From NCBI RefSeq assembly GCF_030028105.1, contig NC_092384.1, positions 29,756,546 through 29,820,545 of the forward strand: DNA of 64,000 bases. Reading direction: 5' to 3'. This document shows positions 10,650-54,330 of the stretch, one piece after another (the first letter of the stretch is position 1; every line of letters starts with the position of its first letter). This DNA comes from Mobula birostris (taxonomy: Eukaryota). A model generated the notes under the pieces. The model was given only the letters and a program-made list of their open reading frames with translations, ran no database searches and was not told the origin of the DNA. The translations under genes and the position numbers were made by a program.

Positions 10650-11700
10650 ACCGAACACAGACCGACAGCATCGGATTTTCGGCACCAAGAGTTGCTGTGG
10701 GAAATGCGAGACACACAAGCGCCGACTTTAAACCACGGGAGGAGGCAGCGCGTTGAAGGAGGTACGGAGAAGTGGCCCTCACCTGAATTTCGATCAGTGT
10801 AATCCCCAAACTCTTTCTGCGGGACGGGGAGCATCGGACGCGCACCAGATACACATGTGGACGGCGAGAGGTCACTTCCGCCCGATGATCGCGTCGATTG
10901 CACGCGCCGTCACGTCCTTTGACGGAGGTCGCGAGCGTTGCGAGGCCGCCGCGCGCCCACGGACCGAGCCGGTATGCTGGCGCTCGGGTGCAGGTGTGCG
11001 CGGACACGGGCGCTGCTGAAGGAGGGCCCCGGGGTGCGGTTCTCGGTCGGAGGAGCCGCCCAAGCGCCCGGCGACGACGACCGGCTGCCCGTCATTCGCA
11101 TTCCTCAGAGGCTGCGGCTGCAGCTGCAGCTGCAGGAGAAGTTGGGACGGCCAGGGAGCGAGGCAACGGCGGTCAGGCTGGCTAGGCCCGGGCGCCTGCT
11201 CATTGTGGGCAAGCGGCCTCAGCTGAACCAGCACGCCGGCCACATTTTCAGCAAGTTCGACCAGGTGCCCCTGGTCTCCAAGGGCTGGAAGCACAGGAAA
11301 GCGGCCGGGGATTATTTTGTCATCAACAACACCCGCACCCAGCCGCCCGTCCTGCCGGAGGAGGAGGCGGCCGAGGTCAGGGGAAAGGTGCGGAGCTTCA
11401 GTTCGCTGGGGCTGTGTCAGGAGCTTTTGGACGCCCTGAGCACGATGGGCATCTCCCGCCCCACCATGGTGCAGGCTCATACTGTTGCGGCCCTGATGAG
11501 AAGGAATAACGTGCTGTGTGCCGCCGAAACCGGCAGCGGCAAGACTCTGAGCTACCTGCTGCCTTTAATGCACACCTTAATCTCCGACAGGGCCGAGACT
11601 GAGGCCGACTGTGACGGGCCGCGTGGACTGGTGCTCGTCCCGTCCCGGGAGCTGGCCGACCAGGTTCGGGAAGTGGCTCGATTACTGGCGAACAACCTGA
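10650..11700. promoter_or_regulatory. CpG island and probable bidirectional promoter; ETS site CACTTCCG at 10873-10880, CRE half-site CGTCA at 10908-10912
   Basis: Dense CpG in an otherwise CpG-depleted region; no evident TATA box; minus-strand splice donor CAG|GTGAGG at 10783/10782. Confidence 0.75.
10783..10860 (-). other. Putative non-coding first exon of the divergent gene (DUS2 expected by synteny); 5' end uncertain
   Basis: Strong donor CAG|GTGAGG pointing away from DDX28; DDX28 and DUS2 are head-to-head in human; no DUS2 coding sequence seen in the window. Confidence 0.45.
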
Positions 11701-12626
11701 ACCTCAACGTGCACACGATTGGGGGAGGCCGTGGGATTGGCAGCGTGAAACTGATCTTATCCCAGGGACCGATCGACCTCCTGATATCCACACCTGGAAT
11801 CCTGTGGAAGGCCTTGAAAAGAGACCTTGTCAGCCTTTATGACTTGACCTACCTCGTACTGGATGAGGCGGACACTCTGTTTGATGAAAGCTTTGTGGGT
11901 TTACTGGAGGACATACTCCACCAGACTCAAATTGCTTCAAATGTCTCAGAAACGCATGGGGTGGAAAGAAAAGCTCAGTTGGTGGTGACTGGGGCGACAT
12001 TCCCAGGTGGTGTGGGGAAACTTCTCAGCAAAGTCACTGATTTGGGCAGCATTGCCACCATAAAGAGCAAGGGGCTTCATTACCTTATGCCACATGTGAG
12101 GCAGAAATTTATGAAGGTGAAGCGGACTGATAAACTGTCTGACTTACTACAAATGTTGAAGGAGCTGAATGCAGAAAAGCCTGGCATTGGAATTCTTGTG
12201 TTTTGCAACAGTGCAGCAACAGTTAATTGGCTTGGTTATGTTTTGGAGGACCATGCTATCAAACATGCCCGGCTGCAGGGAAATATGCAGGCTGAAAAGC
12301 GAAGTGGCATCTTTAGTACTTTTCAGCAGGGTCTGATAGATGTACTGCTTTGCACAGACATTGCATCCAGGGGATTGGACACTCAGAGGGTGGAAATTGT
12401 AATTAATTATGATTTCCCACCAACTCTGTGTGATTATATCCATCGAGCTGGGCGGGTGGGACGTGTTGGGAGCAAGGTTTTAGGTACTGTCGTTAGTTTT
12501 GTTACACATCCCTGGGACGTTGAACTGGTGCAGAAAATTGAAACGTCAGCACGCCAGAAAGTGATGCTCCCTGGCTTGGAATCAAAAATCAGCAAATCTG
12601 AGAGTAAAAATGTACCAGATTTATGA
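10974..12626 (+). CDS. DDX28: Mitochondrial DEAD-box RNA helicase DDX28, 550 aa, single exon
   Basis: First ATG at 10974 (the track's 10938 start is TTG); Arg-rich N-terminal targeting-like peptide; LVSKGWKH signature; Q motif, AETGSGKT, PSRELA, TPG, LDEAD, GAT, TDIASRGLD, YIHRAGRVGR. Confidence 0.95.
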   Translation: MLALGCRCARTRALLKEGPGVRFSVGGAAQAPGDDDRLPVIRIPQRLRLQLQLQEKLGRPGSEATAVRLARPGRLLIVGKRPQLNQHAGHIFSKFDQVPLVSKGWKHRKAAGDYFVINNTRTQPPVLPEEEAAEVRGKVRSFSSLGLCQELLDALSTMGISRPTMVQAHTVAALMRRNNVLCAAETGSGKTLSYLLPLMHTLISDRAETEADCDGPRGLVLVPSRELADQVREVARLLANNLNLNVHTIGGGRGIGSVKLILSQGPIDLLISTPGILWKALKRDLVSLYDLTYLVLDEADTLFDESFVGLLEDILHQTQIASNVSETHGVERKAQLVVTGATFPGGVGKLLSKVTDLGSIATIKSKGLHYLMPHVRQKFMKVKRTDKLSDLLQMLKELNAEKPGIGILVFCNSAATVNWLGYVLEDHAIKHARLQGNMQAEKRSGIFSTFQQGLIDVLLCTDIASRGLDTQRVEIVINYDFPPTLCDYIHRAGRVGRVGSKVLGTVVSFVTHPWDVELVQKIETSARQKVMLPGLESKISKSESKNVPDL

Positions 12627-15282: not shown

Positions 15283-16877
15283 GTCTGTCTGTCTAGGTAC
15301 CATATCTGATGCGGACTTCGGTGACCATGGTTTTCCATATAGATCTTTCCTTTGTTTTTTGGATGACTTCCATTTCCTCGATGTGTAGCCACCTGGCTAT
15401 ACTTTTGATGTACATAAGCCGAGGTCTTCCTCTAGGTTTACTCCCCTCAATCTTTCCAGAGAGTATGAGTTTTTCTAGTTCATCTTTCCGCATGATGTGT
15501 CCTAGGAATCTGAGTTGTCTTTCTCTTATTGTTGGTATGAGTGATCGAACTGCTTGGGCTCTTCTGAGAACTTATTCATTTGATGTGTGTGTGGTCCATG
15601 ATATTTTTAACATTCTCCTGTAAAACCATAATTCAGCTGCTTCTAGTCTCTTTTCCATTGCTGGAGAAATGGTCCAGCATTCACTTCCATAAGTCAGGAT
15701 AGAATAAATGTAGCACTGCAGTATTCTGTTTTTAGTGTACGTGCTCATCTTTCTGTCTGATAATATGGTCTTCATTTTTTGGAAAGCTTCTTTCGCCATT
15801 GTTAATTCTGTATTTGATATCTGTGTCACACCTGCCATTACTTGTTATTAGGCTGCCAAGATATTTGAACTTGACTTGTTTAATGTTTGTATTTCCAATC
15901 TTGATCACACATTGTGGGATGTTTGTCTTTCTGGAAATGACCATGCTTTCTGTCTTGGTGTTGATTGAGAGGCCTCTGCGATTACTTTCTGCTGCCACAA
16001 TGGTGAGTAGTTCTTGAAGTTTTGTTTCTGAGTCAGCTATTAGTACGATGTCATCAGCATATCTGATGTTATTTATATTATGGCCTCCAATTGTGGATCC
16101 TTTGATACTTCTCAAGATACTTTCACTATACAGGTTGAATAAATCTGGCGAAAAGACACAACCTTGCCTGACTCCTCTCATGATATTCACATACTCACTC
16201 ACTCCTCCTTCTATTCTGATGGATGCTGTCTAGTCCCAGTATGTTTCTTAAGAAACCTATATCTTTTCCATCTATGTCAAGATCTTGAAGTATTTCCAGA
16301 AGATCTTGCTGTCTGACACTGTCAAAAGCTTTTGTATAGTCAATGAAACATAGGTAGATGTCTTTTTGTACCTGGATGGCTCGTTCACAGATCATCGGTA
16401 GCATGAAAATTGTATTTCTGGTTCCAGTGTTTTCCACAAAGCCGCATTGTTCTTTACTGATTTCTGGTTTTATACAGCGTCTTGCCCTCATCATGATTAC
16501 TCTGAGAATAATTTTTGCCACATGGTTCATCAGACTTATTGTATGATGTAACTCACATTCTGTTGCTCACTCTTTCTTTGGAAGTGTGATGAACACTGAT
16601 TTACTTAAATCATTAGGTATCTCCCCATGATCATAGATTTCATTTGCTATTTCTGTTATTTTCTGTATTCCAAAATCTTCTAAGGCCAGTATCATTTCAA
16701 CAGCGATGTTGTCTGGACCAGTTGCTCTGTTACGTTTTGTTCTATTTACGGCTGCTCGAATTTCTGATTTTGGAATGCTAGGTCCTTCAAGATTCTTCTT
16801 TATGTTCGGTTTTTCTCCTCTTTGGTCTTCAAAAAGTTCTTTTATATATTTTGTCCATCTGTTTAGGAATTCCTCTA
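15283..16877 (-). mobile_element. RTE-clade LINE, 5'-truncated, with 9-bp TSD TTGTCTACT
   Basis: GVRQGCVFSPDLFNLY, NIRYADD, CFIDYTKAFD, LTYGSECWT, GKIEGSKPRGRPR; (AGAC)n tail; TSD at 15274-15282 and 16878-16886. Confidence 0.9.
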
Positions 16878-23555: not shown

Positions 23556-23873
23556 TCAAGCGTGTGCTTTTGAATCGTTTGCAGAAAAGTTTTCCATGCG
23601 AATCCTTACAACTTTTTTCTCAATGGGACGTGGGAAGAGGAAATTGCACACAAAGACCTGATGGCAGGATTTCTGAAAATTTTCTGAAAGGAACGCATAT
23701 ATTATGGGGTTCACACAGGAATACCCATACACCATGCAGTGGGAGAAAATTCTGAATGCTAACGATGCATCGGTTAGAGGGAAGCTTCCAAATTGTACAC
23801 ACATGGTTATGATGTGGTCAGGCAACCAGGAGAGAAGAAATACAGCAACGACTAGCATGACCATCTGGGCAGT
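23556..23873 (-). CDS. galr1b: Galanin receptor type 1-like (GALR1b-like), coding exon 3 (TM6, TM7, C-tail, stop)
   Basis: Acceptor TCTCTCCACAG|ACT; TAQMVMLVVAVFLLSWLPDH...FPLT.AS..FRI..HC...VNPIIYAFLSENF; 318 nt, phase 0. Confidence 0.9.
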   Translation of the reverse strand, partial: TAQMVMLVVAVFLLSWLPDHIITMCVQFGSFPLTDASLAFRIFSHCMVYGYSCVNPIIYAFLSENFQKSCHQVFVCNFLFPRPIEKKVVRIRMENFSANDSKAHA

Positions 23874-24609
23874 CTGTGGAGAGAGTAAAGAAGAAACATA
23901 ACTTATTTTCAAGGTTATTGCAATAAAGTACATATATTGAGATCTCAATTATAAAGTTCAGCTGTAATTAATCCTTCGCTCTGTATCATTTCCATGTAGA
24001 TTACCTCAACTGTTTTCATCATTCACATTGTATATGCTTTGATCCAGTTTTTAAAAGGAGCTTTCAGAAAGTTTTGTTTTTTTTCAAAAAGTTTTCACTT
24101 TAAGAGATAAAATGTTTGAAAATTACTTTATGCTACTGTGGTTTATGTACATTAATATTTGGTGGGGTCTCTCTTACCTTAAAGACATTGTGTCTACCAT
24201 GCTTGCAATTTAGTTGAAGACCATCACACAAATCAGGGCTATGCTTATCGAGCTTCATTTGTGATTATTGTGAAAGCCACTTTTATTTTTAGATATATTT
24301 TTATTGTTTTTACCTATACCCAGTTTATGGGCCAAATGCAGGCAAAAGGCACTTGCTCATTAAGACACCTTAGTCATCATGGATAAGTTGGGCCTTAAGA
24401 TCTGTCTCTGTGCTGAATGACTCCAGTAGTCCAGGAGTTAGAGATTCAGATTCCTTCATTGGAGGCCTGATTACCACTCACTCCACCTTGCAGACGGGCA
24501 GGAGAATGGATGCCCGCAGCACAATGGATCCTATGGGGCTGGGTAATGGAAAATTAGCACAGTTTCAGAAATTGTGCAGGGGGCAATATGGGATATGATC
24601 CACCCTACA

Positions 24610-24735: not shown

Positions 24736-27308
24736 TGTGACTCCCTTACAGAAGGAAAGTTCAACAGTTGAAAAGAGCACTTGTTCTGCTCTGGAACTTC
24801 CAATCTATGCCTCCATTTGGTGCTATTTAATGAGCTCAAGAAATTAATTTAAACATTTTAAAATAAGTTAAAATTGTATCTGGTGAAACATTCTTGTATC
24901 TTCTTTCTGAAAGACGTCTGATTAAATTATTTTTAATGTTTCTCGATGGTGATGCACCTAACCTGTCTGAAAAGAAAGTCAGAAAGAAAAAAAGATGATA
25001 TAACGTCAGTTTGAAATAATTTAATGTGTAAAAGCAGATTTGGTAGTATTTACACATGCAGAGCCTTTGACATGTTCTGTAACACTGATTTGACTTGAAT
25101 GCACCCTTGGACAAATATCCACAATAAGAAGCAATACACCATCAGATGTAAGTTGGGAACTTATTAAAAGGCACAGTCTGGTTTTACTTATCACTTTTAC
25201 ATAGGTTGAATGAATGAAAAGAGCTAAACAGCATGAACTTGGACAAAAAGTTTTTAATCATCAAAAGATAAAAGATGAAAAAATAATCAGAAAACAGGTT
25301 TCCTTTCATGAAGGGCAGGCAACAGCCTGTGGTGAAAGGATTTTGCCTGGTTCATGGGCTAAATTCAGTAATACTTCTCTCTCCAGTTCCATAGCAGAAG
25401 AAATAATGGCTAACTTGGTTGGTGGCATTATAACTGGTACCAAGCTTAATGCTCATCTATGCTGCAAAAAAAATGGACTGCTGGGAGAACTCAACAGGGT
25501 GAACAGGATCTGTCAGGAGAAAGAATTTGTCGATATTCAGGTTGAGGCCTGACATTGGCACCTGATGCAAGGTGTTCAACTGAAATGTCAACAGTTCCTT
25601 TTCCCCAACAGATGTTGCTTGATTCACTAAGTCCCTCCCGGAGTTTGCTTTTGTTTGTTCCAGATTCTGGCATCTGCAGTATCTTGTATTCCTTATTCTT
25701 GCTGCCCTTTTATGGCACCATTAAGATCTTAATCAGATTTTCAGAACTCTGTACTCAGCCCTTGCTCATGCCTGTGATAGCTTGAGCTACCCTCTATGCA
25801 GTATGTGCAGCAAATGCTACAATGACAACACTAATGAAATATATGAGTCTGATAGGAAAGAAGGATAGGTAACTAAAGGTTACAGTTGTTTTCATACAGT
25901 TGTTTTTATACAGCTGTGGTATTATTCTGACACACAATTATATTGACTTTTAAATAACACCAAGACCTATATATTCCCCCTCATCTTTTATGTGGGCAAG
26001 AGCATTTGAGGGCACCAGTTTAGGACCACATTTAGAACAAAATAGTTGGATAAACATATTCACTGCCTTAAATATTCACTCCATCTGTTACAGTGGTTGT
26101 AAAGAACACCATCCACAGAACACACTGGAGCAGGTCTTTTCAACAGCATTTCCAAATCTTAAGAAAAGCAAGGCCATCAACTTTAAAATCACTAATTTGG
26201 TATATCTCCATCCTTCCAGTGTGCGGAAACAAAATCTTGGCAGTTCCTACCCAAACATTGTGCAAAAACCTTCCCCAGAATGGCAGTGGTCTAATAAGGT
26301 GGATCAACAGCATCACATTGAGAGCAATTTGCTGACTTCACAACAACTATCACATCTGCATTTATATTATTGTGTTATCAGCACTATTCCAGGTTTCCAT
26401 GCCTGCACCAGCCTTTCTGATTGGTTAATAAAGGTTTTCACATATAATTAATGATACTAATCCCGCCCCCCCACACACACACAACACACACACACACTTT
26501 TCGGGTTTACTTGAACTCTGTCTTGGCTCAACATTTCTTGGATTGCCTTGCTTTCAATGTCCCAGACGAGCTGGAGATCAAAATGTCCATATATCAGATC
26601 TCATGCACCCCCTGGAGCTGGTGGCAGAGCCTCGAGGATCCTGGGAGTGGAGCAGGAGGAGTGTGGAAGGCTGGTAGGCTGACAATAGCCTTGTCACTTA
26701 AATCAGCCCATCGACTCTGGGAAGAAGTAAGTGCAGTTTTACCAGAATCTTTAATTATTTGTTAACTTTGAACCATATTTAATGATTATGGAGACTGTCA
26801 GAAACGTATTAACTGATCTTTTGTAGCATCAAGCTGCCAGTGTTGTTCACTTGTTCACAGTTTGGGCCTTGAGGTGCCCAAGACCTGCTTGCTGTGTTTA
26901 TTCCCAGGATGGATGCCAGTTGTGAGAGCCCAGCTCACTTTGTATCCCTCAGTCAGCCCAGCTCGCTGGGTATCCCCCAGCTGGGGTGCAGCTGTGTGGC
27001 GCAGTGATGAATCTGAACAATTGTGTGGTTCCTGCATTAACCTGCTCATTATAAGTATGTTAGTATAAAAGACACAGTACGAACAGGGTAGAAAGTTCGA
27101 TGACTAATGGAGGTGTGATGGAAAAGCTATCAGGACAAACTAACCACGATAAACAAACTCATCACAGTGCATATGCATTGTGACAGTTTAAATTGCCCAA
27201 AATTTGATTAATAGCTGTTCTGGGAAAACTAGATCATCCATACGCATTTCTGAGATTAAAATAGCAAGCCATCTAATTCAGCAATTGAACACAAGAGCCT
27301 GTGGTGGG

Positions 27309-27508
27309 TGTTATGTTGCTTCTGTTTAAACGTACCATGGATTAACAGTAAAGAATCATATTCTGGAAGAACTAGAGAATGTTTATTTACAGTAATAAAC
27401 AAACAAGTCTTAACCCAGCCACATGCTGGAACATTCTGGCAATCCCACGCATGCTCAGTGCTCTGTCCAGTCATGTACTGGCACATCATTGCATGTGATA
27501 TCACCACA
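27309..27508 (-). repeat. 3' LTR
   Basis: Direct repeat of 30306-30505; preceded on the - strand by PPT AAGAAAAGGAAGA (27509-27521). Confidence 0.95.
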
Positions 27509-27748
27509 TCTTCCTTTTCTTAAAAAGAAAAACAATTAACAATGTTAATCAAAACACATCTATATCAGATAACTGAAACTCTGAAGTTGACTCTTTCTTA
27601 AAACCTTTGCGATTCTTTCTTAACACTGCTCCCTCCTCTGTTTGGACCATGTGTGATCTGGTCTGTGTCCATGTGTTCCTTTTATCTTGTATCCTCACTT
27701 TGTCTCCTTGTCCTTCAGACAAACATCTCCTAGATCAGTCAACTCACG

Positions 27749-27892
27749 TTCCACTTCCATTTGTAATGAAATACGAATCTTCTTTTCTTCATCTAATTCA
27801 CTCATTAACTGTGTAATCTCTTTTTTATGCTGAGACTTCATCATTTCAATAATACTTCTCAATTCCTTCACTTGTGCTTTCACTTCTTCCTC
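27749..27892 (-). pseudogene. SH3KBP1: Captured SH3KBP1/CIN85-like C-terminal coiled-coil fragment
   Basis: [47 protein letters not shown] versus recalled human CIN85 [47 protein letters not shown]. Confidence 0.85.
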
Positions 27893-28165
27893 ATACTGTG
27901 CCCACTGTGAGCGTTCTTGCTCTAGACGGTGATGAAACGGAATCTCATATTCTCTCAATGTCTCTTTCATTATCACTTGCATTGAAGCAACCTCCTCCTG
28001 CCATTGCTTTTTCACATCATCAATTGCCTCCTGTTTGGTCGTCTCAGATACTGCAGCCACTGCTTTTATGTTCTCCATGTCAGCATTTGCCTCCATGGGC
28101 TGGACCTGCAGTCGAGTGACATCACCTTCTGCTGACTGTAATGCAACATTCTGTCACTTCAGCTC
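27893..28165 (-). pseudogene. RABEP1: Captured Rabaptin-5 (RABEP1-like) N-terminal coiled-coil fragment
   Basis: LK*QNVALQ...[65 protein letters not shown] versus recalled human RABEP1 LKRQNAVLQ...EAQAEMENIKAIATVSENTKQEAIDEVKRQWREEVASLQAVMKETVRDYEHQFHLRLEQERTQWAQY. Confidence 0.88.
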
Positions 28166-28510
28166 TGTGTCACTATCCAAGACAAAAATTCCTTTCACCA
28201 AATTAAGTCTTTCACAGGCAGATAAACCCAGAATTGACTGTACATTTTTTGGCACGACCATAAATGAAAGCGTGTGCACAATATTTTTGTGTGATACCTT
28301 TGCCACGCATGTTCCTTTAACTGGAATGTCTGCACCCGAACACCCAGTCACTTTTATATTTGTCTGATGTAACCTCGGTCTTGGCTTTAAAGCATTGATC
28401 TCAGATTCTGCAAGAACATTCACTTGCGCTCCAGTATCAAGTTTAAACAGAATATTGTTTTGATTCACTTGCAACGGAATAGTCCAGTTATTCTTACTTT
28501 GTTTATTTTC
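28166..28510 (-). pseudogene. Retrotransposon aspartic protease domain
   Basis: FKLDTGAQVNVL active-site motif and SILGLSAC. Confidence 0.9.
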
Positions 28511-29060
28511 TCAAAGCACATCTATATAAAATTCCTCACGTTCATCTTCATGCACAGCATTTACTTGTTTCAATTTATTTTCCTTCTTTCTACTTTTACA
28601 ACAGCGTGAAAAATGATTAATCTTACTGCAGCCATTGCAAATTTTGCCATATGTGGGACTCTGATTTGGACGATGTTCCCGCGCACAGTGATCACGTGAC
28701 TTTTTTTCTTTCCAATGCCGTTTTGTTCTCTGTCGGTTTCGTCGACGTATTATTTTATTTCTTGATGTATTCACGCTCTTTTACAGAGTTTACATTGCAG
28801 TTTTCGACAAAAAGCTCTTCAGCCTGCAACGTCACAGTCTCAGAAGCTTTTACAAAATTTAAATCTTGCTCTCTCAACAGCCTTTCTCTCAGAGCATTTT
28901 CTTGAATGTCACAAACAAGTCTATCTTTAGTGAGAGAGCAATCCAAACTCGCATGTTCTATTATGCTTTCTTAACTCAGTAACATACTGATCAATTGTTT
29001 CAGCAGCTCTCCGTGCACATGTGAAGAATTTATATCGCTCATACGTTAAATTACGCTTAG

Positions 29061-29942
29061 TGTTACGTACCCCGTAACTGGGTTGCCAAACCAGCAGAAA
29101 TGGATCACTCAGTTGGAGTCAGGATTACTAGAACTAAGAAAGTTTTATTAAAGAAACAAGCAACACAGTAATCGAAAGGATAATAAATGCAACAGTTCAG
29201 CAATGATAAACACACATGTGCACAGAATTAAGATAACAGCATCAATCAAGCTCTGTTGTTGTCTAGGGGTAAATGACCAATTTCAAAGTGACACAAAGTT
29301 CAGTCCAATTTAGTTCAGTTCACAGTAATCGTTGCCATGGCGATGGACAATGTGGGGGGAAGGAGAGAGAGAACGAGAATGACTGATCATTCAGAACGGC
29401 TTCCACTCACAGACTGGCGATATTGCTCACAAGCAGCTTTCGGGCGGGTCCTTTGTGATGTCACCTGAGGTCACCGACTGTGACCCCTCCTCCAGATGCG
29501 GTCGATCCTCTGCAGTGAACCCGGCACCCAAGCAAGGGTGGACACACACCGGGTTCCCACTGATCGTACCTTTCCACCCTGTGCGTTGAAGGCTGATCTC
29601 CCACTCAGCCGTCCAAGAGCTTCCCACCGACTTGTGAGAGGCGCACCGCTTCCAGGGTCTCGTTACCTCGAGTGTCGTGTGTGTGTTTCCTTAGCGAACC
29701 TGTCCCTTTTTATCCCCCTGCTGGGGTATAGCCTGTCCATCACTTCAAACAGTTCAGGGTTCAAAGGGGGGAGCCGCTCTAGACAATACCCAGACTGATG
29801 GCTCCTTCATTAACATCTCCAAATGCTGCTTCATTGTTCCTTATCTCTCCCTCCCCTGAGGACAGGTGGCAGACCAACTGCTGATGCCACTGGTGCTAGC
29901 CCAGGCCAGCAAACATCTTAATTTATGTGTATCCTCGTCACA
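29061..29942 (-). mobile_element. Solo LTR (882 bp) inserted in gag, with 4-bp TSD TTAG
   Basis: Ends TGTTACG...CGTCACA; TTAG at 29057-29060 and 29943-29946; removing it restores gag CIPKRNLTYERY; minus-strand GATAAAAA and AATAAA. Confidence 0.88.
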
Positions 29943-30290
29943 TTAGGTATACAAAATACTTCAAATCTGTCCATTATCGACTTTAAATTGAAATTATCTC
30001 CATCTTCAAAAACAAAATTATTATATACCTCTACTGTGTCATTCCGGATTACATGGAGCAAAAGCGCAGCTTTGTTTTTTTCCTATTTTTCTTTATAATC
30101 GATCGCTGGTAAGTACAGTTCAAACTGTTGCTTGAATATCCTTCAATTCGCAGCCATATTGCCAGACAGCTGAAGTTTTGGTGGGGGTTGTAAACCTTCC
30201 ATTTTACCGTTTACAGTTCGAAATTTTTTCTTCCTCTCTTTTTTTTTGATTATCTTCGATTCTCGATTCTCCCGTATTATTCTTCCAGAA

Positions 30291-30305
30291 CCACTTCTGA
30301 CACCA
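30291..30305 (-). promoter_or_regulatory. Primer-binding site complementary to the tRNA-Leu 3' end
   Basis: TGGTGTCAGAAGTGG directly after the 5' LTR. Confidence 0.85.
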
Positions 30306-30505
30306 TGTTTTGTTACTTCTGTTTAAATGTACCATGGGTTAACAGTAAAGAATCATATTCTGGAAGAATTAGAGAACTTTTATTTACAGTAATAAACAAA
30401 CACATCTTAACCCAGCCACGTGCTGGAACATTCTGGCAATCCCATGTATGCTCAGTGCTCTGTCCAATCATGTACTGGCACATCATTGCATGTGATATCA
30501 CCACA
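30306..30505 (-). repeat. 5' LTR
   Basis: Direct repeat of 27309-27508, followed on the - strand by the PBS. Confidence 0.95.
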
Positions 30506-31227
30506 GTGGGAATATAAGACATGTATGAAGAAGGTTTATCAGTCTGGACTTTATGGCCAGCTGTGAGGTGCTCAAACTCACTACAGATGTACAAATAAGA
30601 GCAATTTGGCTTGGCTCCGTCTAGATATTTCTTAAATATTTTATCTTCAATTATCAATCCAATTTATTTTGAAAACTGCAATTTTTGTACTTCCATCACA
30701 CTCTCAGGCCTTGCACTCCATATCCAGACAAGCCGTTGAATTGCTCTTTGTTGTATCTCTACTGAAAGTCTCTATTTGAAAGTATCATTAAAACTGTGTC
30801 CTATGGTTCCCAACAATTTCACCAATGGGAACAATGCCTTCTTGTTCACATTGTAGAAAAACTCTAATAATCCAGCACCACTGGGTCTTTGGGAATGCTG
30901 GATTAGCAAAATTTCATTTTATTGGATGTTATTTCCATCAATGCATCAACGCACTTTTATTTCACAGTTTTTGTGCTTTACCCATTAATATAAAATTTCC
31001 AGTGAAACACATGAAGGGAGTGGCAAATATAGCACTCTGGAGACCAGTTCTGGTTCTGAACTGACAAATATTCCTTACCAGGCACAGGAGCCCAACATTG
31101 GTTTCAACCTGTGGTCCTGATCCCAGCTCAGCCATAGTTTGGCTGCATTCCCTGTTTGCACTCTGGACCCTGGCTCATACTATGTATTAGTGAGTGAGCC
31201 AGATGGAGGACCATCATCATTTCCAAA

Positions 31228-34277: not shown

Positions 34278-37200
34278 TGTAAGGGGAGTGGGGCGTTGGG
34301 AATGGACCTAAATGCAAGACACAGACACTAAGTACTAGGAACAGGACTTGACTGGAGAACTAGGGTTAGGGACGGGACTGTATGCAGACAAGAAGTTGGG
34401 ACAGGAACACAGACTAGGCTAGGGAAGCAGGACCTGGACGAGGGACTGGGAACAAGGTGCCTGGGCGTGGACTCTGAGCCAGAGACTGGACAAGGACCCA
34501 GAACCTGGGTCTTGACTTGGGCTCGGACTCCAAAACTAGGGGAAGATGTGACGAGGCTTGGGTTCCTGGAGACCAGGCGAAGATGCGACGAGGCTTGGGT
34601 TCCTGGAGATGCGAGGGTACTTCGAGGCTTGGGTATGGGCAACGAACCAGAATCTGGGACTTGCTGCGGGCTCGGACTCCAGAACTAGGTGAGGACAAGA
34701 CGTGGCTCCAGGACAAGGAGTGGCAACAGGACTGGACGTGAGACTTCTGGACAGGACAAGGGAACCCCAGCACAGGATGAGGGAACCCCAGCACTGGGCT
34801 GGGCAAGGTACTCCTGGGCTGGGTGAGACACATGGACAAGACGAGAACACAAAGCCATGGCTTGGACAGGACAAGGTTCTTGGATCGTGGCTAGGACTGG
34901 ACGAGACCCCGAAGACTTGACTTGGTTGAGGGAGAGACAGGAACGCAGAGCCTTGGTCAAGGGAGAGACAGGAATATGGAACACAGAGCCAGGACCCCTC
35001 CTTGGAAACAGGACGTAGGGCTGGGACTCATTACACAGAATGCAGAATACAATGAAATGGTTCCCAACACTAGGTAGCGGCAAACGGCCGGACATACCTA
35101 GCAAAGGCGCGGACACAGAAGGTTCCCAACACTAGGTAGCGACAAATAGCCAGACCTACCTAGTGAAGGTGTGGACACAGAGACAGTTCAAAACAACGAT
35201 AGACAGTTCCTTATCATGCTCCGGCGATTGAACTAGACAGTGGTGCAGGCGAGGGTTACAGGCAAGGCGAGGCTTCAGACGAGGCAAGGCAAGGTGAGGC
35301 AACAGAAGGAAGGGGAACAGAAGCAATTCAGACAGGTGGTATGGACAGGAACAATCCAGCAGCCAGAGGCTTCTTCTTCTTCTTTTTTGTTTTATGGTAG
35401 TTGGCAACCAGTTTTTCAGTGCATTATCGCCACCTTCTAGACTTGTAGTGTTCCAACCAAATGTGTCCTGGAGTTCTGTACTTTAGACAATCTAGTTCAG
35501 CCTGCAGTTCTCTATTAGCATCACCCTGTAGCTGCAGTTCCTCGTGACTGCTTAATGCATTCATTAGATAATGCCACAAACTGCTATTCTTCCCTAATTT
35601 TGTCACGTTTTCATGTAGTTGCGTTACCTCAATTACATTGATTTCATCTATATCACTTGTAAGACTAAAACCATCTTGTTAAAGAATAGTAATTATTGCA
35701 TGTTATACTTTAAAAATTGCTGGTTTTCCAAGTCTATTTGCTTTTTCAGGTTTTCCTTCTCTTGGATCGTAGCCTACAGTTGTTTACTGAGACCTCGAAG
35801 TTCTTCTTCATTTGCTTCCATGTTTTCATTTTATAATCTGAATGTAGATAATTCACTTTGTAACAAATTCCTTTTCCTTTTGTATCCTCGTAATAATTTC
35901 CTCCATTTTCCAATCTCTTTCCAACTCACAGTTGTTATTGCCGGGTACTTCTATTTGTTGTTGGAATTCTGAACATGTACCCTGGGCTTCAACCATAAAA
36001 TCTGAGGATTTTCCTTAAGTTCTGAAACATATTTCTTAAATTCTTGACCATTTGCGATAAATATACTGCCATTAAGATTCCATCTCCCCTGCCTGTGAAC
36101 TGTTGAATCCTCCATTCAGTGTTTCTTTGACTTCTTCCTACCTAATCCTTTTAATACCAAGATACTTTTCTGCAGACTTGATGATAATTTTAATTTTCTC
36201 AGTTCTTTTGCTTGTTTGCACTGAACAATTAATTGCATACACCATAAAAAGTACGAAATCCTTTCTACTCATTAATAGTGTATCCTTATTTTTTATATTA
36301 CAGCCCTCACAATTCACCAGTTTATTATTCCCTGTATTTGCTTGCTTAACAGCCTTTTTCAGCAAATTCTTTCACTGCCTCTGCATAACTGATTCCTTAA
36401 GTTACTTTTACATATTGTATCTCAGCTGCCTTCTTGCTATAAATGCACCCTCAATAAGCTGCGTTTTGTTCCTCACCACAATTGCAGCATTTCAGCCTAG
36501 CTCCCGCTTCACATTTCCCATATTCATGTTCTCCAGCGCATCTCCCACATCTTCGCTTTCCTCTGCGGACCGCCGCAATGTGTCTGAATTTCTGACATTT
36601 ATAGCATCTTAAAGACAGTGGTATATATATTCTAACCACATAACACATATGCCTTAAGTAAACGTTAGTCGGCAATCTCTCTTCATCAAAGTTAATCATT
36701 ACTGATAAACTATCATACTCTTTCCCGTTTCTTGTAACTTTCAAACATTTGGCCTCAATAATTTTTGCTCCTTTTATGTTCTGCTTAATCTCATCCATAG
36801 TAACTTTTGTTGGTATCCCCAAAATAACTCCTCTAGTCCACTTTCTATTGTTGGGTATTGAGCATTGTACTTCTTTGCCATCTATTTTACTTAATCTTAT
36901 CACTTTGCCTTGCTGAGCACTATCTCAACAAATCACTAATAGCAATCCATTTTGTAAAATCTTTGCTCCTTTAATCTCACCTATAATTTTGTAGAGCATC
37001 TTCGTCAAACGAATTGGGTTTCAATCACCAAAAGACACCCTGTCTTCGCCTGGTTTTATAATTGCTTTAATCTCATCTTCTTTCCATTGTTTTGCTGTCT
37101 TGCTTTGATCATCCACTGACTCCTCAGAGTTTGATATCCCGTACCTCTGCTTTCTTTTCTTCCTCTTTCCATTCCTTTCCTCTTTCCCACCGACCTCCAT

Positions 37201-43078: not shown

Positions 43079-44325
43079 CCTAACCTATACTTTATCCTCC
43101 CGTCTTTGGCCATCCTAGTACCCTACTCCTGTTTATCCATCATATACTATAACAAACCCCTGTACCCCTTAAGAAAGCTAAAAATACCCTAACCTGTGCT
43201 GTCTCACCTATGCCCAGCAACCCTTTTAATGTGAATTCCTGTACTCCCAATTCCATTGTTTAATTCTCATCATCTCTCTCTGTATCCCATACTTCCTGCG
43301 ACTCAGAACTACATGTTCTACTGAATCCTCTTCCTGACATTCCTCACACAATCCTGTCGGGTGTTTCCCTATCATTTTCAATGTTTTGTTTAATCCACAG
43401 TGTCCCAGCCTTAACCTAGTCCACACAGTTTCCTCTCTTCTGTATCCACTACCTACCCTAGTACCTGCAATACTTTTTTGTATTTGATATAAATGCCTCC
43501 CTTTCCCCTCCCTGTCCCATCTTTCATGCCACATTTGGTTGATTTTTTCCCAGATTACACACTTAACCTCTGCTTTACTGATACTAATGTGCATTTCCAC
43601 ATTTTCTTTCTTTAACGCCCTCTTTGCCAACTCATCCACCCTCTCATTCTCCTTCACTCCTACATATGCTGGAACCCATAGAAATTTTACCTGGCCTCCC
43701 TGATTCGCAATTCTTGCAACTAACTGAAGGACTTCATAAGATACATCTTGCCGACTGTTTGGGTGAAAAGACCTTAAACTTGCTCTAGCATATCTGAGCA
43801 CATCAATGCTTTGATTTGTCTGGCTTTCTGCACCCATTGCAATGCAACCAACACTGCCAGCATCTCCACTGTAAACACCCCTAACTTATTAGATGTTCTT
43901 CTGCTGATTCCAATTTCTTTTGCTGGTATAACCACCCCAAACCCTGCCACTGCTGTTTCGGGTTCCTTCGCACCATCCATATAAATGTGAGTATAATCAC
44001 TATACTTTTCCATCACATGACAGTTAAATGCATTTACCAAATCAGTTTTATATTTTCCTTTCCTTTTTACCTCTAACAAATGCCAGTCTATGTCAGGCCA
44101 TACAAGCTTCCATGGAGCTACAACCGGATAAACTACCGAAGGACTTATCCTTAGATCAAACACTCCACATTCTTTAGCAATATTATTCCCTACCCGACTA
44201 AAGGTATCCCTCTGAAACCTCCCATTTTCACAGCGCTCCTGCAACACTCCTTTAGCAGGGTGAGAATCATTGTGCCCCCCGCAAGTTGGCCCAGTAGTTT
44301 GCCATCAGCTGCATCCTTCTTAGTT
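42913..44325 (-). mobile_element. 5'-truncated Nimb-like (I group) LINE with RNase H domain; 14-bp TSD
   Basis: IYMDGAK, VEMLAVLVALQW, CSD, FLWVPAYVGVKENERVDELAK, RLRLGH, C-terminal CEEC..EH; TSD GCAGCAGCAACCTG at 42899-42912 and 44326-44339; (CAGA)n tail. Confidence 0.9.
43040..43075 (+). repeat. (CA)n microsatellite inside the LINE 3'UTR
   Basis: Perfect CA run. Confidence 0.95.
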
Positions 44326-52539: not shown

Positions 52540-54330
52540 CGCTTCAAGCATTAGGGGGTCGAGTTGTTAGTTGGTCCCGTTATCTTGCTTATCCTCACCT
52601 CTCCCTCCAACCCGTTCTCGGAGTAACTCCCGCGACTTCCTACTCTACCGGCACCGGGTTGTGATGAACTTTCCACCGACTCACGGCGTGGGTGGCTTGC
52701 CTTTTGGGGCAAGGCTCAAATTACCTTAGCATAGCAGAAGCAGATTAGCAGCAAAGGCAGCAGGTACCCGATGATCAGGATGCCCACGCTGTAGACCTGC
52801 TGCTGGATTTTGTTGTGCCATATTCCCCAGCAGAAGGATTTGTTCGGGGCTTCCGAATATTCCGAATACAGATTCTGGTGCTGAGCCACGGGCGCTGCAA
52901 CCAGCAGCGAAAGCAGCCAAATCAGCGCCACTCCCGCCGAGGCGTTCCTCCTGTTCCGGATGCGCGGCCGTCGCTTGCAGTGGACCACAGCGATGTACCT
53001 GTCCACCGACATGGCCACCATGGTGAAGATGCTCACCAGCATTGTCGCCGTCTTAAAATAGTGCACCGTCTTGCAAAGGAAGGCGCCAAATACCCACTCG
53101 GGGAGCGAGTAAATCGTGGCTTCGAAGGGCACACAGAACACCAGGAAGGAGAGGCTGGCAACACTGAGATTCAGGATGAAGGTGTTGGTTGTACTCTCCG
53201 AACTCCTCGATTTGGTCCGTCCCAGGACGACCAACACTAGGGTGTTCCCAACAACGCCGAGAAAGAATATCAAGCCAAAGACAATGGGCACTACCACCGC
53301 CTCTGCTCCGACCTGGAAGGTATCCGAGCTGGCGTTTCCCCGGGAAACGTTGTTGCTGCTGGAGAACATGTTGTCCGTATCCATCCAGAGTGCAGAAAGG
53401 TGCGGCTTCGCCGTCTGGTCCCTGCCGTTACTCCGGTCGGGAGGCGCAGCTGGGTGGAATCACTGAATAACCAGACCGCGGCATAGTCGCAGCGAGTGAC
53501 TGCTGCTCCCGACCCTGGGGCAGGAAGCGCAAGTGGAACTGACTCGCTGCCTCAGCCAGTATCTCCACCTCAGTCCTTCCCATCTCACCTTAACGACGCA
53601 TAGCTGACAGCTACTGCCCAGCTCTGGTGATAAAACAGTCACTCTTCTATTCAGAACTGGAAGACAAATGTACACCCATTCTCCAGATATTAGCCAGCCC
53701 AATTACTTCCCCTCCCCTCCTTTGGAGTTCGGTGTTCCTCTGCAAACACAGATTAACCGCGATTACCTGTCAGAATCTGATTTTAAGAGCACTGGACGCG
53801 TGAAAACAAATTGTCAGCAATTTATAATTAAACCAAAGTGCCGGCGTAATTATTAGTACCCGTAGTCAATTAAGGCTATGTAATCACGAAGAGGATTCCC
53901 GTACAGTCCTTTTCTTGACCGGTACGTATACAATATTCGCAGATCGCTCTCTCGCTGAAACAGTTTCTGTTCGTGAGAGGGTCGCGCCCTGTCAAATCCT
54001 TCCTGTACAGTCAGAAACTCATTCTGACTGCCCTCCTCATTGCAAGGAGGACCCGGGGATGGATGCAAAGTTAAGATTCAACCCGAGAACCAAGACGATT
54101 CTCTAATGTCCTGGCTGATCCCAAGAACATTCACGGAGAAGGACAGACAGTGTTGCTGCAATACCATCGGCTCTTCGGTTTACCCGGAACTCGCTGCTCC
54201 TGCAGTACAAGGAGATGTCGGTAAGGAGATGCCGAAGACTGGCCCACTCTGATGTGCAGGACTGGGTGCTGAGGCTTGGCGTTGGTGACGCGAAGAGTCT
54301 GTGGGGAAGGACTGCAGTCCTAGACATCGC
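52540..54330. promoter_or_regulatory. CpG island over the GALR1b-like promoter and exon 1
   Basis: Marked CpG enrichment relative to AT-rich flanks; limits approximate. Confidence 0.7.
52725..53384 (-). CDS. galr1b: GALR1b-like coding exon 1 (N-terminus to TM5, 220 codons)
   Basis: N-glycosylation sequons, FGLIF.LGV.GN, STTN.FILNLS, MSVDRY, GYLLPLLLICFCYAK|GTAATT. Confidence 0.93.

Follow-up and report, generated by a model that had tools for sequence, protein, structure and literature searches.

A decayed retroelement of Mobula birostris is a dead copy of a non-autonomous Gypsy family whose pol was mostly replaced by spliced host mRNA. It is reasonably probable that the frame across its joins was kept for the copying in cis of a translatable Gag-fusion RNA, and that the captured cargo is frame-keeping filler. 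The copy lies on the minus strand (27304-30510) of a 64,000-nt stretch of NC_092384.1, referred to here as the window. It carries the hallmarks of an LTR retrotransposon, namely two TG...CA LTRs, a target-site duplication, a putative primer-binding site behind the 5′ LTR and a polypurine tract before the 3′ LTR (Table 1). Reverse transcriptase (RT), RNase H and most of the integrase have been replaced by spliced host mRNA, with the cargo running in the order RABEP1, SH3KBP1, RABEP1 and then an integrase tail.

Table 1. Features of the Gypsy element in the window, listed from its 5′ to its 3′ end
Feature	Position	Strand	Evidence or remark
Target-site duplication, 5 bp, 5′ side	30506..30510	-	same 5-mer at both flanks
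5′ LTR, 200 nt, TG...CA	30306..30505	-	94% identity to 3′ LTR
Primer-binding site (putative), starts TGG directly behind LTR	30291..30305	-	sequence
gag, 5′ part	29943..30202	-	start codon 30202; codon 20 is a stop; 88-92% identity with copies of helper subfamily A
Unrelated insertion, 882 nt, TG...CA ends, 4-bp duplication	29061..29942	.	private to window copy
gag, 3′ part, and zinc-knuckle remnant	28514..29060	-	aligns to gag of P0241-type helpers
Stop between gag and protease, private	28511..28513	-	TGA; 1/32 covered sister copies
Aspartyl protease, LDTGA motif	28167..28510	-	Pfam PF13650 E 3e-8, PF13975 E 3e-8
Captured RABEP1 mRNA, aa 60-156, two exons without intron	27878..28166	-	273/289 nt to host gene
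Cargo stop at CpG site	28154..28156	-	TGA; among 36 covered sisters 27 sense, 9 stop
SH3KBP1 (CIN85) C-terminal coil, aa 616-662, captured; three exons, their two introns absent	27749..27889	-	139/141 nt to host; PDB 2n64
RABEP1 second piece, ~aa 154-157 to 172	27700..27755	-	53/56 nt to host gene
Integrase C-terminal tail	27550..27700	-	131/147 nt to helper copy; lineage-wide 27-nt and 117-nt deletions
Polypurine tract	27509..27524	-	sequence
3′ LTR	27309..27508	-	94% identical to 5′ LTR
Target-site duplication, 5 bp, 3′ side	27304..27308	-	same 5-mer as 5′ flank

The original prediction had placed the protease, RABEP1 and SH3KBP1 fragments in one reading frame, with the zinc-knuckle ORF in the same frame across one more TGA, and both statements hold. 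The minus-strand stop-to-stop frames 28511-28780, 28154-28510 and 27695-28153 share one frame, with TGA codons at 28511-28513 and 28154-28156 between them, and the last of the three matches Rabaptin in Pfam (E 1e-39) and the SH3KBP1 coil in PDB 2n64 (E 7e-14). A Pfam search of the 3′ gag piece (28514-29060) returned no match. Only two junctions had been counted, where in fact there are four, as RABEP1 resumes after SH3KBP1 and is followed by the integrase tail; this second RABEP1 piece had been overlooked because a 1-nt gap near 27731 hid it.

Exons of a rhodopsin-family receptor (Pfam 7tm_1), which we take to be galanin-receptor-like, occur on the minus strand on either side of the element (23556-23948 and 52716-53459), and the element therefore likely sits in an intron of the receptor gene, on the same strand. 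Elsewhere in the window, the plus strand at 10923-12626 holds a single 567-codon frame with DEAD and Helicase_C domains in a GC-rich patch, presumably a DDX28-like gene. Stretches at 15732-16229, 36451-36924 and 43226-44304 look by eye like decayed LINE pieces (RT, ORF1 zinc knuckle and RNase H). The 882-nt insertion in gag is likely a solo LTR; relatives at 80% identity occur elsewhere, two of them ~4 kb apart within the RABEP1 region of the host (L047) and a third close to a copy of the element (L075).

The route by which the host sequence arrived was assessed by comparing the cargo with host genes taken from the same genome, where the RABEP1 exons translate with 251/251 identity to P0002, a protein labelled Mobula birostris. 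One RABEP1 intron (~9 kb) is absent from the window cargo, as are two SH3KBP1 introns (three in copies carrying SH3KBP1 alone) and the two introns of a further piece, from SLU7, found in related copies. The missing introns show that capture took place as RNA, as originally proposed. In each case the host piece sits in place of internal ORF sequence, and both LTRs are retained. The joins carry microhomology, recognized by eye as short shared stretches where both sides were displayed, the RABEP1/integrase join being seen from its cargo side. Splicing was considered as the source of the RABEP1 join; it lies 1 nt inside exon 3 and has a 6-nt microhomology, so template switching fits better.

The SLU7 piece consists of three spliced host exons that lie directly downstream of five Pfam Slu7 matches, on the same strand and in the host frame. 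Pfam, the Atlas and a representative search left this cargo unnamed, returning two irrelevant repeat proteins, and its source was recognized as the one non-element match among 87. At the host locus (L288, L301-L302; G000:C8 ~121.97-121.99 Mb), the second of the three captured exons has a GC splice donor at its end. Cargo from other genes was not seen among 30 loci sampled by their integrase tail, of which L167, L170 and L171 have unexplained upstream sequence.

The interruptions in the window copy were then set against 38 sister copies, 36 of which cover the cargo stop and 32 the gag/protease stop. The suggestion that the cargo stop arose by CGA>TGA decay is borne out: the host codon at 28154-28156 is a CpG site, most sisters are sense there, and the frequency of the stop (10/37) is no different from the ~19% of decay seen at the remaining CpG sites of the cargo (p=0.21). 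Nor do its carriers cluster when 43 copies are placed on a tree, which is star-like (4 changes, against a shuffled mean of 4.3). The cargo stop is recurrent CpG decay. The 1-nt gap near 27731 shifts the frame in the window copy, and among 36 covered sisters 34 have the extra base, one is like the window and one has another deletion. Both stops and the gap are thus private or recurrent decay, and most sisters read through. An ancestral continuous Gag-PR-cargo frame, as originally put forward, is supported by this reading through of both stops and by two gene models (P0001 and P0134) that read through the same joins. The window copy itself is dead, as had been stated, with both TGA stops, a gag stop at codon 20 (30143-30145), the 882-nt insertion and gag indels, which in the 3′ part include private losses of 8 and 18 nt as well as one inserted nt. 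Among 170 loci examined, none of the 119 copies with both ends is open from the start codon to the tail.

The parent type is a single-ORF Gypsy element, which we take to be Mag-type, which encodes protease, RT, RNase H and integrase but lacks env (P0241, Pfam order), its ORF ending ~45 nt before the polypurine tract. Such K02A2.6-like elements (P0241, P0242, P0249) are the source of the chimera's gag, protease, RT start, integrase tail, LTRs and primer-binding site, as well as its polypurine tract, whereas its RT, RNase H and integrase core have been replaced by host sequence. An RT search found RT-bearing relatives of P0241 at 150 or more places in the genome, all of them matching, and the 20 copies fetched align along P0241, are all decayed and belong mostly to two helper subfamilies, A and B. 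Subfamily A is 85-92% like the window element in LTR and gag (6 copies), as against ~70-78% for subfamily B. With regard to P0242 and P0241, a protein of the toad Spea bombifrons was 70% identical to the ray protease/RT-start region, with fish matches at 52%; horizontal transfer may have been involved.

Four chimeric lineages, with more than 200 matches in total, were found in the genome. Lineage R carries RABEP1 only (14 loci analyzed), while lineage S carries SH3KBP1 only, aa ~540-667 (66 loci matched, 26 checked). The window type gave 43 matches to a pattern that catches 27/45 known copies, which corresponds to ~70 copies. The SLU7 lineage carries RABEP1, SH3KBP1 and SLU7, mostly without protease, and gave 87 matches, one of which is the host exon. 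Since RABEP1 and SH3KBP1 each occur in a lineage of their own, the window type is best read as a recombinant of R- and S-like elements, and not as two captures into one element. The LTRs are of type B in R and S and of type A in the window type and the SLU7 lineage, and gag shows little net divergence from the respective helper in three of the four lineages; given this match to their helper subfamilies, cargo likely moved between helpers by recombination. Dispersed copies with identical joins represent secondary retroposition, and the median divergence between paired LTRs (0.07-0.08 in each of the four lineages, 0.08-0.10 among helpers) reflects one old period of activity.

Several smaller variants accompany these lineages. 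On contig C17 a RABEP1-only copy that contains an insertion recurs at 13 places (L193, L197-L203, L206, L207 and L212), most likely through segmental duplication, and was counted once or twice. Three SH3KBP1-only copies (L056, L057, L060) have a third 5′ linker length, with 87-93 nt between anchors as against 54 and 204, and stand outside the junctions scored below. Single-copy junction variants also occur (L078, L154, L159, L162, L191, L247), of which L078, L162 and L247 are in frame and L154 is out of frame. Contigs assembled from four sequencing runs presumed to be RNA, but possibly DNA, cover the element stretch, and some bridge the protease/RABEP1 join; none of the runs is recorded as RNA, and the contigs are given no weight as evidence of expression. 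Contigs from four further runs of unrecorded kind, coded as four organisms, also contain the family, with protease-deletion joints listed in three, and indicate presence only.

The evidence for selection comes from the frame at the joins. Thirteen junctions common to many copies were scored over 222 loci: six arose by capture, two by recombination between one cargo and another, and five by internal deletion. The in-frame form was the commonest at 13/13. By junction, the copies in frame were 8/9, 46/46, 19/19, 18/28, 15/15, 38/40, 101/106, 37/39, 38/39, 75/77, 71/73, 43/43 and 63/63. The host's own frame was also kept at all six capture joins, that of SLU7 included. Five of the joins are pure internal deletions that are in frame as well, so the frame rule is not tied to one cargo. 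Moreover, the protease itself was deleted in frame in 63 loci, which indicates that the invariant is Gag plus an open frame and not a Gag-PR-coil arrangement.

How surprising this is depends on the null. It had been supposed that two random junctions would both be in frame and sense about 1 time in 9. That figure does not suit these joins: where the coding sequences share microhomology, the match falls in frame in 40-56% of cases. Such matches follow codon phase, so one third is unfit as a null. Exact 6-7-nt microhomologies between the donors gave 0.40-0.47 in frame, with 0.56 for one small 8-nt class, and imperfect matches scoring 4-9 gave 0.37-0.51, the strongest and smallest class being unstable (0.27-0.71). 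Among single-copy deletions of at least 20 nt, 6/11 were in frame, with 7 events that were ambiguous between references dropped. The probability of 13/13 is then 0.5^13 = 1.2e-4, or 0.56^13 = 5.3e-4. Taken together, these values favour selection for a continuous Gag-fusion frame.

One alternative is that the frame was never selected, and that codon-phased microhomology, chance and the ascertainment of lineages account for the pattern. On the two sides of a join the microhomology often codes for identical residues, the null is raised to about 0.4-0.55, and two frameshift alleles have reached a third of their lineages. Nonetheless, 13/13 would be unremarkable only at a per-junction bias near 0.8, and the measured values are far lower. 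As to ascertainment, it was protein searches that first brought R and S to light, and lineages that are out of frame and carry other cargo may have escaped notice; most loci, however, came from DNA or pattern searches that are blind to frame. An absence of selection is therefore unlikely, and selection on the open frame is the reading retained here.

The frameshift alleles do bear on how strong that selection can have been. A common 1-nt loss in lineage S, five codons upstream of the SH3KBP1/integrase join, is present in 9/26 copies; it ends the frame after ~31 codons instead of ~87 (~55 codons early) and accounts for the 18/28 at that join. In lineage R, an A-run of the RABEP1 piece has lost 1 nt in 4/12 covered copies, compared with 4/123 in the two large lineages (p=0.002). 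Frameshift carriers formed no clade in S or R, on trees that are poorly resolved. Such carrier rates would be hard to reach by recurrence, and frameshifted RNAs were therefore probably also copied. Many further shared shifts occur in gag, mostly in A-runs or short repeats, and these are indistinguishable from slippage. The benefit of an open frame is therefore partial at best and not absolute. In cattle, D-type ERVs without an intact ORF are even reported to be preferentially mobilized (PMC10924933).

A second question is whether the cargo does anything of its own. The original prediction envisaged a hybrid coiled coil that could scaffold particles or bind host Rabaptin-5/CIN85, and a related proposal would have host coiled coils replacing Pol as a multimerizing module behind Gag/protease, with the SLU7 lysine run replacing a basic patch of the integrase. 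The RABEP1 and SH3KBP1 pieces are helical, and AlphaFold2 without an alignment predicted one helix (residues 20-134) across the RABEP1/SH3KBP1 join, with a mean pLDDT of 86 and a pTM of 0.44. Such a single helix would, however, be expected of any two helical pieces, so the model says little. The two lineages with both pieces are the large ones (about 70 and at least 87), and the lysine run occupies the place of the helper's basic integrase stretch RRNRKDLKK, a position that hints, from sequence, at a choice made at the protein level. Precedent comes from HIV-1, where a leucine zipper behind the protease is reported to have increased Gag-PR multimerization and cleavage; it also lowered particle output (PMC3291649), which speaks against the proposal as much as for it. 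Furthermore, K/E-rich, purine-rich mRNAs would offer microhomology to this pol anyway, with no function needed.

Comparison of substitution rates was among the checks proposed for the cargo, and it was computed both among copies and against host genes. Between lineages, the net divergence of the cargo is close to zero for dN as well as dS, which leaves dN/dS almost powerless. Against host RABEP1, net dS is ~0.09 and dN is 0.003-0.006, alike in all lineages, and the low ratio is explained by change on the host side. Within lineages, cargo piN/piS is 0.68-0.80 in R, S and the window type, a baseline of neutral-looking decay, and 0.41-0.55 in the SLU7 lineage. There, variants in at least 3 copies are 30 nonsynonymous to 21 synonymous, compared with 160:41 for singletons (p=0.003; 47 of 83 loci), a synonymous excess that speaks for a cargo role. 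This excess is gone for variants in at least 5 copies (13:6, p=0.25), no such synonymous excess among shared variants was seen in R, S or the window type, and recurrent transitions may account for its presence in one of four lineages.

The frame data bear on the hybrid coil as well. Frameshift alleles within or at the end of the cargo have spread through about a third of R and of S, and the largest lineage has for the most part lost even its protease. These results do not demonstrate a function specific to the cargo, a job of its own for the hybrid coil is not supported so far, and a scaffold function is best kept as a hypothesis; that the pieces took over jobs from Pol seems quite unlikely. 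Broader still would be a scenario in which this Gypsy family time and again took up host coiled coils, along with a polybasic segment, to do the work of Pol domains and shuffled them between co-packaged RNAs under protein-level selection, yielding a mobile Gag-coil scaffold in hundreds of copies across stingrays and devil rays. We hold this to be decidedly unlikely. The cargo as likely filler that keeps the frame open remains the preferred reading.

The host, instead, might have domesticated the chimera, either to serve as a gene or to act as a dominant-negative Gag. Gene models that share its joins are indeed annotated in Hypanus sabinus (P0001) and Hemitrygon akajei (P0125 and P0134). These models are partial, though, and the lack of an open frame in all 119 copies with both ends, the star-like tree and the neutral-looking cargo piN/piS in R, S and the window type make domestication very improbable.

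The preferred reading, selection in cis on an open Gag-fusion frame, can be arranged into a series of steps. Template switching inside helper-made particles likely put the host mRNA pieces into the element, and RABEP1 and SH3KBP1 would have been captured separately. Recombination of co-packaged RNAs may then have generated the window type, and SLU7 was probably gained later, with loss of the protease. The gag and LTRs, meanwhile, would have been swapped between helper subfamilies B and A. Throughout, a translated Gag fusion may have conferred a cis advantage, partial and not absolute, as suggested by the junction statistics and by analogy with the mouse IAP 1delta1 element.

Parts of this route are known from other systems. 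LTR-mediated retrocopies have been described across animals, with microsimilarity joins, multi-gene chimeras and secondary retroposition, and they share with the ray family the replacement of part of the ORF between two LTRs by a partial spliced mRNA (Tan et al. 2016, PMC5131818). Those retrocopies are young or low-copy, and frame is reported relative to the parental protein. The ray family, by contrast, has more than 200 matches in four lineages that recombined with each other and with two helper subfamilies, and it stays in the frame of the element itself as far as the integrase tail. Maize Bs1 is likewise an LTR element with three host-gene fragments in a hybrid ORF; it has 1-5 copies, one of its three pieces is out of the parental frame, and it is reported to be transcribed and translated (PMC5131818, PMC13317346). 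In the ray family each of the three pieces retains the frame of its host gene, copy number is high, and no intact copy turned up among those examined.

Two non-autonomous elements offer further parallels. Mouse IAP 1delta1 is helper-dependent and has an in-frame Gag-Pol fusion reported to aid its own copying in cis; it is an ERV that has undergone a simple deletion and contains no host sequence, and the cis effect was tested there, while in rays it is only inferred (PMC6466679, PMC7411935). Wheat RLG_Quinta is a non-autonomous Gypsy partner that kept its Gag ORF and needs an autonomous helper; it differs in being centromere-targeted, and its abstract mentions no captured host exons (PMC11302176). 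Literature searches found no paper on this ray family or on RABEP1/SH3KBP1/SLU7 capture, with repeat libraries and most subscription journals outside their reach and SLU7 not sought by name. The route of LTR-mediated capture is thus known, and such scale and frame-keeping in a vertebrate were not found in these searches.

With this family nature has in effect run an experiment on which parts a parasitic retroelement has to retain. A cis benefit of a Gag fusion has so far rested on mouse IAP 1delta1, and 13 independent joins, involving three host genes and two helper subfamilies, provide a genome-only test of whether an open Gag-fusion frame aids copying in cis. The frame-keeping across these 13 joins is the part most worth the attention of specialists. 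On the practical side, the copies lead ray annotations to list spurious gene models that resemble RABEP1 and SH3KBP1 (P0001, P0125, P0134). More generally, LTR elements shuffle host exons in frame and at high copy number in a vertebrate, which is a route to new chimeric genes.
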